NCBI RefSeq assembly: GCF_056712565.1
Contig: NZ_CM160072.1
Reading direction: 5' to 3' (one strand)
DNA: 64,000 bases
Below are positions 36,430-41,676 of the stretch, in pieces. Position numbers: made by a program. Numbering within the stretch: the first letter of the stretch is position 1; every line of letters starts with the position of its first letter.

Positions 36430-39400
36430 TAACAAAAGCAATTTTTCCGGCTATCTGTATACAAAAACGCCGTAAAGTTTGAGCGAAGTCAATAAACTCT
36501 CTACCCATTCAGGGCAATATCTCTCTTGCAGGTGAATGCAACGTCAAGCGATGGGCGTTGCGCTCCATATTGTCTTACTTCCTTTTTTGAATTACTGCAT
36601 AGCACAATTGATTCGTACGACGCCGACTTTGATGAGTCGGCTTTTTTTTGCCTGTTATTTATCAGCGTCTACCCTTTAAGAGTCCACCCAATGACCGGAG
36701 GGAAATATGACGACACTTATTTATTTGCAAATTCCTGTCCCTGAACCGATTCCTGGCGATCCTGTTCCAGTACCCGATCCGATCCCTCGCCCGCAACCCA
36801 TGCCTGACCCACCACCCGATGAAGAACCGATTAAATTGTCGCATCGTGAGCGTAGATCTGCGAGGATACGCGCCTGCTGACTTTGCGTCGATGACCACGA
36901 GAATAGATTGTGACCGCTTTTTCTACCCTGAATGTTTTGCCTCCCGCCCAACTCACAAACCTTAATGAGTTGGGTTATTTAACCATGACGCCGGTGCAGG
37001 ACGCCGCGCTTCCGGCGATCCTTGCCGGAAAAGATGTTCGCGTGCAGGCGAAAACCGGCAGCGGCAAAACGGCGGCTTTTGGCCTCGGCTTGTTACAGCA
37101 AATTGATGCGTCGCTATTTCAAACCCAGGCTTTAGTGCTGTGTCCTACGCGTGAACTGGCGGATCAGGTGGCAGGTGAATTGCGTCGGCTGGCGCGTTTT
37201 CTGCCAAATACCAAAATTTTGACGTTGTGCGGTGGTCAACCGTTCGGTATGCAGCGTGATTCGTTGCAACATGCGCCGCATATTATCGTGGCAACGCCGG
37301 GCCGTTTGCTGGATCACCTGCAAAAAGGCACTGTATCACTGGATGCGTTGAATACGCTGGTGATGGATGAGGCCGACCGCATGCTGGATATGGGATTTAG
37401 CGACGCCATTGATGATGTCATCCGTTTTGCGCCAGCATCTCGGCAGACGCTTCTGTTTTCGGCAACCTGGCCGGAGGCCATCGCCGCAATCAGCGGAAGA
37501 GTGCAACGCGATCCTTTAGCGATTGAAATTGACTCAACAGATGCTCTGCCACCTATTGAACAACAATTTTATGAGACATCCAGCAAAGGCAAAATTCCTC
37601 TGTTGCAACGGTTATTAAGCTTGCATCAGCCATCCTCTTGCGTGGTGTTTTGCAATACCAAAAAAGATTGCCAGTCTGTCTGCGACGTGCTGAATGAAGT
37701 AGGGCAAAGTGCATTGTCGTTACACGGCGATCTGGAGCAACGCGATCGCGATCAGACCCTGGTACGTTTTGCTAACGGTAGCGCCCGTGTACTGGTCGCG
37801 ACTGATGTTGCTGCGCGTGGTCTGGATATAAAATCGCTTGAGCTGGTGGTGAACTTTGAGCTGGCGTGGGACCCTGAAGTTCATGTACATCGCATCGGTC
37901 GTACAGCTCGTGCAGGAAATAGCGGTCTGGCGATCAGTTTCTGTGCCCCGGAAGAAGCACAGCGGGCCAATATCATTTCTGACATGTTGCAGATAAAACT
38001 TAACTGGCAAACGCTGCCAGCGAATAGTTCCATTGTGCCGCTGGAAGCAGAAATGGCAACGTTGTGTATCGATGGCGGGAAAAAAGCCAAAATGCGCCCG
38101 GGTGATGTATTAGGTGCGCTGACAGGAGACATCGGGCTTGATGGCGCAGATATTGGCAAAATCGCCGTGCATCCGGCGCATGTTTATGTCGCGGTGCGTC
38201 AGGCTGTTGCTCATAAAGCATGGAAACAGCTACAGGGCGGGAAGATTAAAGGAAAAACGTGCCGGGTGCGGTTATTAAAATAATGAAATGTTGAATCGCA
38301 GGGTGCAAGAGTAAACATCTTCTTCGGGATTGCCGGATGCGACGCTGGCCGCGTCTTATCCGGCCTCCATAAGAGTAGCCCGATACGCTTGCGCATCGGG
38401 CGCTATCCTGGTTATTTCACTTCAACCACATTCAGCCGTAACTCATCCAACTGATTTTCATCTTCTTCAGGCTGCCAGCCCGACGGTTGTAGTGGGATCT
38501 CTTCGCGATCAAACGCCAGATCACCCCCGTTAACCACTTCAGAACCGTGAGTAATGCCTTTAAAATCGAACAGGTTGGTATCGCACAGATGTGACGGCAC
38601 CACATTCTGCATCGCGCTGAACATCGTCTCGATACGCCCCGGATAACGTTTATCCCAGTCACGCAACATGTCAGCAATCACCTGACGTTGCAGGTTAGGC
38701 TGTGAACCGCACAGGTTGCACGGAATAATCGGGAACGCTTTTGCATCGGCAAAGCGCTGAATATCTTTCTCGCGGCAGTAGGCCAGCGGACGAATCACGA
38801 TATGTTTGCCATCATCGCTCATCAGTTTCGGAGGCATACCTTTCATCTTGCCACCGTAGAACATATTTAAGAACAGCGTTTGCAGGATATCGTCACGATG
38901 GTGACCCAGCGCGATCTTCGTCGCCCCCAGTTCCGTTGCGGTGCGATAAAGGATACCGCGACGAAGACGAGAACACAGTGAGCAAGTGGTTTTGCCCTCC
39001 GGAATCTTCTCTTTCACGATACCGTAAGTGTTCTCTTCAACAATCTTGTACTCAACGCCCAGCGTTTCAAGATACTCGGGCAGAACGTGTTCCGGGAAGC
39101 CCGGTTGCTTTTGATCGAGGTTAACAGCCACCAGCGAAAAATTGATTGGCGCGCTTTGCTGCAAATTGCGCAGAATCTCCAGCATGGTATAGCTGTCTTT
39201 ACCCCCGGAGAGGCAAACCATGATGCGATCGCCTTCTTCAATCATATTGAAGTCAGCAATGGCTTCGCCCACGTTACGACGCAGACGTTTTTGTAATTTG
39301 TTCAGGTTGTATTGTTCTTTCTTTGTAATTTGTTGATTTTCTTGCATTATTTCAGTTCTCTGGTACTAAATGGGGCATATTGAGGGCAAACTTTGCAACT

Positions 39401-41676
39401 ACGATAACCGCGCATTCAACATGGCTACCTGTTCGTCGTTCATGTCATCAATCCACATACCGTAAATTTCATACACCATCTGCGCAGTTTCATGCCCCAT
39501 CTGGCTGGCTATAAATGCCGGGTTCGCTCCTGCCGTCAACAGCCAGCAGGCAAAAGTATGTCGCGTATGGTACGGATTACGGCGGCGAATACCAGCACGT
39601 TTTACTGCTGCATTCCATCTCGCTCCCAAATAGTCGTAGTGAAATCTGATGGGAAAGCCTTGCTTAGCATGCTGGTGTTGCGCTACCCGTACAGGATGCG
39701 GTAACACAGGAAGAAATTAGAACAGAAACTGTGGCGGACATTGTGCATTCGTTGCCAGGCGGAGAAATAGAACGCTACAACAGGTGCAGAATATAATTTT
39801 TCGCGAGTGCCAGAATAGCGATATTATGCAGTGTTTTTTAGTTTTCTATCAGGGGATATTTTGTGAAACTTTTCGGTGAATAAAATAATTCTCTGTAATA
39901 AATGATGAGTATGGTTGGTGGTTATATTTGCGCATGGAAATATTACATTAGACATGAATGTGTTTCAAATGAAAGAGCCATGACACCCGAATGGAGTTAG
40001 GGATTCATTACGTATCTAATCTAAAGAATAAGAAAAATACTTAATTCATTGTGGGTGGTGATGATATCTTGATATGTGAAAATGGTTCTCTTAATAAGAT
40101 GTAACTAGCTTATTACTTATCCATAGCACAAGAAATGGTCCTGTATCTGCGTTGCCATGAAATAAGATAGGCCTAAATGTAATAAAGAGTTGCATGACAA
40201 AATTACTAAAGTTCACAATAAAAAAGAATTAAGTTTTTTGTTCAGGTATTTTTTTAGTGTATTGTTTTGAAATGTTCTACGCTGCTCTAACCTTCAGTCT
40301 GAAGAGGGCTTGAATCGTGATGTCAGTTCGATTGACATAATGTTATTAATAATGTTTACGTTTGAATGTGAAATATGCTTAACTATGCCTTGATTGTTAA
40401 TCACAGGGACTGACTATGAGAAAAATACTGATGTATTTATGTATTAGCATATGGATTGTTATATCATGCGTGCCTATCATATTAACTAGCGAGTATTTAA
40501 CAGAGGCGAGTATAATGGCATTGATGTTTGGTCATGCCAATGCACTATGTATTGGGGTTTTTATTTCTATTATTTATATAGAATGCTGGAGGTAAATAGT
40601 GTGAACAGCATTAGTTTGATGATTTTATACTGAACTAAAGGGGGGAAGAGGTAACGAAAAAAGACCTCCACCAGGTACGAATCTGAGGCGGGCAGATGGA
40701 GGTCGATATCTACACGATTAAATTGATAAGTAAAAGCCCCATCAGGGATTGATTTTTTCGAGTCTAATTTAAAGTAATTTCAACGATTTGGCAGAATTTC
40801 TTAGAGTTAATGATTTTCAAGTTTTCGATTACCAGGAAAAAGGCTGGGTGCTGATAAAATAGTCATCTGCATTCCTTAAATTGTGTAAGGGTGAAAGGAT
40901 AAAGTTCAATTTAAAGGCGGTGCAATATTAGCACCATCTTATATATGTAATGATTGATTTGCCTCTTTATTCTACTGTTGAGATTATTGTTTTCGAAAAT
41001 TGATTATTATAAGCGCGAAAAGAAATGCTACAGCAAATAAGAGGACGATTGTCGGCGCTGGGGCTCTGTCGAGAAAATATAATAACCATACACCTGATAT
41101 TGTTATTGATATCGTTACGGCGATAAGTAATGCCTTATGAAAGCGATGCGTGATGAGGACAGCAATAGACCCTGGAGCTATTAATAGTATATAGACAGAA
41201 TAATTCCGACTGCTTTTAATGTGGCAAAAATGGTAGGCGATACCATGCAGAGTAAACCGTAATGTAATAATGATATCTGTAATCCGCTGACTTGTGCCTG
41301 TTGATAGTCAAGACAAAAATTCCTGAAAAAACGATACCTATAATGGTATCTTTCTTTATGATGCTATTATCTTTCAGATAGCCAGTTGCAATTGCACAAA
41401 ACAGTCCTACAATAAATGCACCAATTCCCAGCGGCATACCTATAATCCAGGCATAGAACTATGCCAGGAAACATTGCGTGGTTCATTGCATCTCCTATTA
41501 GCGCCCAGTCTTTTAATACCAGAAAAACTGATAATAATGCACAGGGGAACGATATTATAATAGCGATTATCAATGCATAATTCATAAATTTAAATTGTAA
41601 TGATTAGAGGGGAAAATGTCAGCACATTTGCGAAATAAATCAAAAAGCCCGCAGCAATGTGCGGGCGTTAGTGTCA

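Follow-up and report, generated by a model that had tools for sequence, protein, structure and literature searches.

A probable deletion-decayed Rac-type prophage relic at the ttcA locus of Escherichia coli

In Escherichia coli K-12, the Rac prophage is integrated at ttcA. The locus is examined here in a 64,000-nucleotide (nt) stretch of contig NZ_CM160072.1 (RefSeq assembly GCF_056712565.1), called the window, which matches the chromosome of the E. coli type strain ATCC 11775 / DSM 30083 at 100%. Between ttcA (38412-39347, minus strand) and uspF (41674-42180, minus strand) the window holds an AT-rich island (39348-41673), and a first-pass annotation had described it as the scar of an ancient or excised element. 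Sequence comparison indicates that the island is very probably a "grounded", deletion-decayed relic of a Rac-type lambdoid prophage, and neither a clean excision scar nor the ancestral state of the site.

The left end of the island is of Rac type. The Rac attachment (att) core, attL, lies inside ttcA at its 5' end (39290..39323), and a pattern search found it as the sole copy in the 64-kb window. The N-terminus of TtcA is the Rac-type one, identical to that of K-12, and differs from the empty-site form MSQNQEISKKEQ (MSQNQEIS); this TtcA' N-terminus is the form made by Rac excision (Liu et al., 2015, PMC4632033). Next to attL, on the minus strand, are the last ~77 codons of a Rac-type tyrosine integrase (intR', 39399..39630), recognised by identity to K-12, by a match to phrog_216 and by the Prokaryotic Genome Annotation Pipeline (PGAP), which calls a tyrosine recombinase pseudogene at 39399-39629. 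Over 39300-39630, the window is 97.6% identical at the nt level to the 5' end of ttcA, attL and the 3' end of intR in K-12. The open reading frame (ORF) adjoining ttcA is 102 amino acids (aa) long (39399-39707, minus strand); its phrog_216 match (E 1e-22) spans residues 21-102, and its integrase-derived part comprises ~77-82 C-terminal residues, the first 20-25 codons being a fortuitous read-through over a deletion junction. The ~100 aa of integrase C-terminus in the first-pass annotation are therefore genuine Rac intR (97.6%), at a length of ~77 aa. The fragment covers positions 159-241 of the 301 in the phrog_216 profile and keeps the HxxR box and the region of the catalytic Tyr; everything N-terminal, ~335 residues, is gone, and with it the complete R-K-H-R-H/W-Y set and core-binding domain of a functional tyrosine recombinase. 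Two marks of a Rac-type element, attL in ttcA and an IntR-type integrase beside it, are thus present, the integrase by its 3' 232 bp only.

To the right of intR' follow remnants of five further phage genes. The first is an internal or C-terminal fragment of DUF1627, a gene of the lambdoid early right operon (DUF1627', 39635..39757, plus strand; phrog_11856, E 6.6e-11; PGAP pseudogene at 39642-39757), which shares 78% nt identity with the corresponding gene in an intact prophage (L006 209-320). It overlaps a frameshifted 3' fragment of a DUF977/"LygF"/PHROG-142 ("Ren-like") gene (39735..39886, plus strand; phrog_142, E 2.3e-7), which has 69-72% nt identity to the 3' end of LygF in phages 640R1 and PhiR42_1 and whose matches in E. 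coli prophages fall on DUF977 genes. Further on lie an intact 59-codon ORF, orf59 (40416..40595, plus strand; MRKILMYLCISIWIVISCVPIILTSEYLTEASIMALMFGHANALCIGVFISIIYIECWR), the C-terminal half of a Hok/Gef toxin gene (hok', 40650..40748, plus strand; phrog_251, E 0.004), which is 74-82% nt identical to hokD/Hok-Gef genes, and the pseudogene sitD' of an Fe/Mn ABC-transporter permease (40984..41585, minus strand; phrog_4782, E 1.6e-50). The whole order is attL, intR'(-), DUF1627'(+), DUF977/LygF'(+), orf59(+), hok'(+), sitD'(-). Intact prophages and phages carry DUF1627, a DNA-binding/LygF gene, small nin genes, hok, DUF968/YdfU, RusA and Q on the same strand in this succession, and the four plus-strand genes of the window stand in the order of the L006 prophage and of phages L017 and L018. 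Compared with L006, L017, L018 and L099, the island shows the lambdoid gene order, with the late genes wholly deleted.

The minus-strand gene at the right end also has a place in such a phage. PGAP calls sitD' a frameshifted metal ABC transporter permease, and the decayed permease fragments that the first-pass annotation had seen before uspF are this gene. Its first 13 codons and residues ~104-202 are missing, and its several frameshifts require three reading frames to be joined; an uninterrupted permease of ~285 aa is absent, as are sitA, sitB and sitC beside it. The conceptual translation is 72% (residues 14-103) and 63% (residues 203-273) identical in aa to SitD of the lambda-like phage 4A7. 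In that phage the order is tail genes, sitDCBA (minus), attP and int (minus), so that in the prophage sitD would stand in the same orientation just inside attR, which is the position of sitD' relative to the lost attR.

At the right end, the phage-derived DNA passes into the chromosome at a deletion junction (41586..41601), located just before the uspF terminator (41647-41666, minus strand, from a terminator scan). From 41594, 80 bp upstream of the uspF stop codon, the window again matches the empty-site and K-12 chromosomes, 41594-41760 corresponding to L005 2493-2659 (empty site) and L003 4374-4208 (K-12). The ttcC' fragment of K-12 (L003 4478-4374) and 95 bp of native spacer (empty-site L005 2398-2492) have no counterpart in the window, and there is neither an attR with its ttcC' duplicate nor a second att core. 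The deletion thus extended from the prophage into the chromosome. Of the Rac genes xisR, ralR, recET, stfR and pinR none is present, BLAST against the two ends of K-12 Rac (the first ~3 kb and the last ~4 kb, the parts compared directly) matching intR' only. The relic is unable to excise, because attR and an excisionase are missing and just the last fifth of the integrase is left. Since excision restores the 175-bp spacer and the TtcA' N-terminus, the loss of attR together with 95 bp of chromosome also means that the island is not an excision scar; an old mobile element did leave its relic at the Rac site, as the first-pass annotation had proposed, and it was not excised.

Three states of the ttcA site were distinguished in 5426 complete E. 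coli genomes, the set on which all population counts here are based. At the empty site, as in strain Z226-1, ttcA and uspF are separated by 175 bp, and a 601-bp probe across this junction is contiguous in 2486 genomes. The whole island is present at 98.3-100% identity in 1044 genomes (~19%). The ~1900 remaining genomes mostly give an attR-type half-match of the junction probe, that is, an occupied site. K-12 (strain DH1) belongs here, with full-length intR, xisR, rcbA, ralR, recT and recE next to ttcA and, at the other Rac end, stfR, tfaR, pinR and ydfK with the ttcC' fragment beside uspF, which bears out the first-pass statement that K-12 has a full Rac at this junction. Carriers of the island include CFT073, Nissle 1917, ABU 83972, SE15, ATCC 25922, MP1 and O25b:H4-ST131, and the identical architecture with all PGAP pseudogenes was found in CFT073, ST131 and four further sampled genomes. 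CFT073 had been reported as the single exception among the strains compared, with a Rac-type TtcA and "no rac-like prophage in ttcA" (Liu et al., 2015, PMC4632033). This published anomaly is accounted for, because CFT073 holds the same relic. Two records that bear a plasmid label, NZ_CP141085.1 (385 kb) and CP054253.1 (252 kb), also contain the whole island, with 98-99% identity; they are probably mis-assigned chromosomal contigs.

The history of the island very probably begins with a Rac-type phage that integrated into the 5' end of ttcA by IntR site-specific recombination and exchanged the first TtcA codons for phage-borne ones. Successive deletions, at least four or five, would then have removed more than 90% of the prophage and left a colinear skeleton; the rightmost would have started within sitD, taken sitCBA and attR and ended in the chromosome, with a loss of 95 bp of the spacer upstream of ttcA. 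From then on, the relic was very probably inherited vertically, with TtcA frozen in its Rac-type N-terminal form. ttcA is cut off from its ancestral upstream DNA, so that it would have to be transcribed from relic sequence. The same deletions are found in all seven aligned alleles, and the decay should therefore predate the diversification of the lineage.

The only gene of the island left intact, orf59, belongs to a family that is widespread in prophages. In phages vB_EcoS-640R1, 813R8 and PhiR42_1, tblastn revealed gap-free homologues over the full 59 aa (41% identity, E 3e-11), whose start and stop codons align with those of orf59. The phage-type protein, MKNALQFLFVAFWLF...IEYWR, is 59 aa long and occurs at L018 5001-5180, at L017 5001-5180 and in 79 IMG/VR loci; among 158 IMG/VR relatives of orf59, 80 loci were fetched (L019-L098), of which 79 are of prophage type. 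The 145 bp upstream of orf59 (40271..40415) are 62% nt identical to positions 4866-5000 of phages L018 and L017. Phage copies possess a strong ribosome-binding site (TAGGAGGAATAATG), whereas the relic gene has a weak Shine-Dalgarno sequence (AGGGA, 6 nt before the ATG), and a promoter scan of the plus strand over 40271-40415 gave no convincing sigma-70 promoter. The family is located directly upstream of hok in the lambdoid nin region, where hok starts 258-260 nt after the orf59 stop codon in 72 of the 73 prophage-type IMG/VR loci long enough to tell; in the window hok' follows after 55 bp as a result of deletion. Phage-type orf59 was found in 1568 genomes without PGAP annotation, a systematic annotation gap, and the relic copy is likewise unannotated by RefSeq. 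The records of 640R1 and PhiR42_1 annotate an ORF on the opposite strand instead, labelled "hornerin" in 640R1 and 813R8 and otherwise hypothetical, which is not open in the window.

Both subtypes share the residues W13, S17-C18, P20-I21-I22, T24, F38-G39, N42-A43-L44 and E56-x-W58-R59 and have two hydrophobic helices. orf59 is very hydrophobic (grand average of hydropathy 1.37), and AlphaFold2 places helices at 2-24 and 30-58 (mean predicted local distance difference test score 77), so that a two-helix membrane hairpin is predicted; the product, if made, is most likely a small hairpin protein of the inner membrane. No family in Pfam, NCBIfam, PHROGs or PADLOC matches the sequence; among 1.84 billion representative proteins, a profile search returned the two subtypes and no remote homologues, and no literature match was found for its peptide strings. 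Several apparent variants were rejected. The "alleles" of 86-92 aa in metagenome assemblies L008 and L009 are low-coverage chimeras; the extra 71 nt to which they owe their length and the tail of L008 have 98.8% identity with Blautia sp. BIOML-A1 and occur in no complete E. coli genome. P0013, a "frameshifted" orf59, goes back to an assembly full of errors, in which 10 kb contain 176 gaps. The two gut metagenome assemblies (ENA), independent of each other, join the island to Blautia DNA (L010) at the same AT-rich k-mer, TTTTTATTTCTATTATTTATATA, and these chimeras have given rise to the fake proteins P0010 and P0012 in public protein collections.

The neighbour of orf59 had a different fate. 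The aligned part of hok' is VTKKDLHQVRI*GGQMEVDIY, ~22-30 C-terminal codons with an in-frame TGA at 40684-40686, and the sequence upstream in this frame is not hydrophobic and contains stops, so that no intact Hok ORF of ~50 aa exists. From the orf59 stop to the C-terminal half of hok the distance is ~330 bp in phage (L018 5181-5512) and 55 bp in the window; the ~280 bp lost by deletion contained the promoter of hok, mok and sok as well as the transmembrane half of Hok, which is the toxic one. No mok leader, sok antisense or tac/fbi element was found, and an Rfam scan of 39348-41673 gave no sok. hok' is dead, and the relic contains no functional toxin-antitoxin system. The first-pass annotation had remarked that AT-rich scars of this type often hide small toxins or small RNAs (sRNAs); a hok-family remnant and the intact orf59 were indeed hidden here, the remnant being dead, and no Rfam match at E<=1, hence no known sRNA, lies anywhere in the island. 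Two further candidates were discarded. A terminator-like hairpin on the minus strand (40657-40700) is the diverged coding palindrome of hok followed by an A-run of lysine codons, and the DNA upstream of it on that strand is unconserved; the small ORFs of the orphan DNA (43 aa at 39824-39955 and 41 aa at 40091-40216) match no family and fall where the island is most polymorphic.

We infer that all these pieces derive from one prophage, and several observations weigh against that reading. About 620 bp of the island are orphan AT-rich DNA, in two blocks of 384 bp (39887..40270) and 235 bp (40749..40983, downstream of sitD'), without homologue beyond the 1044 island copies, for which a phage origin is assumed. 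At the nt level, sitD' reaches no more than 69% identity to the sitD genes of phages, plasmids and chromosomes and has no intact close relative in E. coli genomes, phages or plasmids, all matches being either at least 95% identical (the relic itself) or at ~69%, and it could stem from a different element. An intact "parent" prophage with all the pieces at ttcA was not found, and the comparison with K-12 Rac covers its two ends. The carriers named above (CFT073, Nissle, ST131, ABU 83972 and others) are of phylogroup B2, an assignment that covers the named strains among the 1044 genomes. GC content, finally, is ~0.49 in intR' and 0.32-0.39 in the rest, with a step at ~39700. This step would suit an origin from two or more unrelated elements, in which a Rac-type phage left attL and intR', and the AT-rich core with sitD' came from a separate island or a second, tandem lambdoid phage, later fused by deletions. 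The 97.6% identity of intR' to modern Rac, set beside 62-82% for the other fragments to their nearest relatives, points the same way, and phages integrate often at the ttcA hotspot, about a third of genomes having an occupied site. However, lambdoid phages are mosaics in which unequal divergence of modules is expected, all fragments are placed and oriented as on the map of one prophage, read from attL to the b region, and neither extra att cores nor fragments of a second integrase were found, which makes a composite origin improbable. For a clean excision scar, or for an ancestral Rac-free arrangement with a fortuitous integrase-like ORF, which the first-pass annotation had named as the outcome that would overturn its view, speaks only the absence of a full prophage. 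The true empty site, in 2486 genomes, is a 175-bp spacer with the N-terminus MSQNQEIS, whereas the window has the Rac-type TtcA N-terminus, 232 bp at 97.6% identity to intR and the five further phage gene fragments; this explanation retains practically no probability.

With a decayed Rac-type prophage as the preferred reading, a further explanation would add to it: the relic may have been retained because it is useful, with orf59 as a domesticated prophage gene whose small inner-membrane product would be under purifying selection, and/or with the intR'-DUF1627' block as promoter or leader of ttcA. orf59 is the sole undamaged gene among six, and its frame, length, start and stop are preserved relative to phage homologues at 62% nt identity. 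Between the subtypes, non-synonymous differences (pN 0.33) are rarer than synonymous ones (pS 0.72), and the other frames over the gene contain stops in at least one lineage. Among the seven alleles, 40337-40641 has 1 variable site (M6V) in 305 bp, compared with 4-5% in its flanks, and 39481-39760, the longest invariant run of the island, has none in 280 bp; these are the two least variable stretches (scan statistic P ~0.005-0.008). The orf59 block is at least 99% identical to the window in 1037 of the 1044 carriers, an equal-length control 130 bp away (39900-40204) in 137. On the other side, the core genes nearby differ widely in their diversity at 4-fold sites, between 1.1% (ompN) and 7.5% (ttcA), so that local genealogy alone can give cold patches; the orf59 block also lacks synonymous and flanking changes, which selection at the protein level does not predict. 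A structured RNA in the block was considered and rejected, its fold being unremarkable (z = 0.33). The gene has no convincing promoter and a weak Shine-Dalgarno sequence, all 6 of 6 polymorphisms in phage-subtype orf59 are non-synonymous, and at about one disabling lesion per 100-200 bp, as in the neighbours, a 180-bp ORF would by our estimate survive by chance in ~30% of cases. The invariant run 39481-39760 spans intR' and DUF1627', 130-410 bp upstream of ttcA, and may represent a ttcA promoter or leader, the native upstream DNA being deleted, or an effect of local genealogy. Retention of the relic for its usefulness is on balance doubtful, and a continued function of orf59 can be proposed only tentatively. 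A bolder and rather unlikely reading takes orf59 and the prophage homologues for a genuine, so far unannotated family of expressed inner-membrane proteins of 59 aa with two helices, genetically coupled to hok loci in E. coli lambdoid prophages. The relic copy would then have been domesticated and kept under selection lineage-wide after the loss of hok and the phage; such a protein could act as a membrane-active factor in phage exclusion, toxin modulation or envelope physiology.

Variation elsewhere in the island is uneven. The stretch 39880-40415, in which the longer block of orphan DNA lies, has 25 variable sites in 536 bp and is polymorphic among B2 alleles, and the region of 40749-40983 has 7 in 244 bp (seven alleles in each case). 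At the left end, polymorphism is concentrated in 39300-39399, which comprises the first 16 ttcA codons and the ttcA-intR' spacer and has 11 variable sites in 100 bp. In FDAARGOS_1253 (L015 2620-2760), TtcA has yet another N-terminus, the third, MQENQKNTKKEIY, which seems to be an attL-proximal end recombined in from another rac-like phage. The ancestral ttcA-uspF spacer (L005 2478-2528; in K-12 at attR, L003 4389-4339) has a weak similarity of 76% over 51 bp, including GTATGGTACGGATTA, to the 3' region of intR (39552-39602), which may be the trace of a still older integrase at this hotspot or chance. In addition, a database protein of 87 aa (P0006, NCBI, from a 12.6-kb contig) fuses the IntR C-terminus (...EIYGMWI) directly to residues 15-59 of orf59, which points to an inverted or deleted form of the relic in some strain or else to an artefact of assembly.

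The surrounding gene order is zntB, FnrS, ynaL, dbpA, ttcA, the island, uspF, ompN, MicC and nifJ/ydbK. GC content over 39800-41600 is 0.32-0.39, compared with ~0.50 in ttcA, dbpA and uspF, and in the ORF listing no ORF of 60 aa or more lies between 39708 and 41215, followed by permease fragments of 72 and 73 aa (41216-41585, minus strand) and uspF. The ~1.9 kb of AT-rich DNA free of such ORFs in the first-pass annotation is thus borne out; "nearly ORF-free" needs the reservation that orf59, the longest ORF there at 59 aa, was missed by one codon. PGAP places three pseudogenes in the island, those of the recombinase, DUF1627 and the permease. No tRNA genes or flanking repeats were found as borders of the island. 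The Rfam scan detected the sRNAs FnrS (36528-36645, 134.8 bits) and MicC (43607-43727, 121.3 bits) outside it at their expected positions. In the dbpA-ttcA spacer (38327-38365), a weak match on both strands to naRNA4/CssrE (29 bits, below threshold) is probably a repetitive extragenic palindromic (REP)-type palindrome.

For E. coli biology, the relic means that ~19% of complete genomes carry a non-excisable Rac-type remnant, a fixed N-terminal variant of TtcA and a ttcA separated from its ancestral upstream DNA. It bears on any comparison of ttcA regulation or function among K-12, Rac-free strains and extraintestinal pathogenic E. coli (ExPEC). It also illustrates how far a prophage can decay with its phage gene order still readable. 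The main lead is orf59, an uncatalogued and unannotated small membrane-protein gene family linked to hok loci, of which 1044 genomes carry the relic type and 1568 the prophage type.

Among known systems, the relic is closest to Rac of K-12 and to the rac-like CP-933R and Sp10 prophages in ttcA, with which it shares the att core, the phage-derived TtcA N-terminus, the 3' end of the integrase (97.6%) and the flanks dbpA-ttcA and uspF-ompN. Rac of K-12, however, is 23 kb long, keeps attR/ttcC', intR and xisR and remains able to excise (Liu et al., 2015, PMC4632033), whereas the relic measures 2.2 kb and is without attR, xis and four fifths of int; its orf59, hok' and sitD' have no counterpart in the compared parts of K-12 Rac. 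sitD' resembles the sitABCD moron in the b region of lambda-like phages such as 4A7, known also from ColV-type plasmids and pathogenicity islands, in its orientation, its attR-proximal position and 63-72% aa identity, and differs in being diverged (69% nt identity), frameshifted, shortened internally by ~100 codons and non-functional. In the same way, hok' is 74-82% nt identical to chromosomal genes of the hokD type (hok/sok loci such as hokD/relF in Qin) and sits at the nin-region position that it has in intact prophages, unlike them without promoter, mok, sok and transmembrane half, and with a stop in frame. Grounded or domesticated defective prophages are reportedly the subject of work by Bobay and colleagues from 2014. 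The concept of such prophages has been reviewed (Ramisetty and Sudhakari, 2019, PMC6379469), and the relic agrees with it in vertical inheritance, immobilisation by loss of att and recombinase, decay by deletion and the keeping of few genes at most. It is thus an ordinary and well-understood kind of object, fixed in a major E. coli lineage and not explicitly described before at the ttcA locus. Compared with other grounded prophages it is an extreme end-state, with less than 10% of the phage left and a single intact gene of 59 codons, on which selection is suggested.

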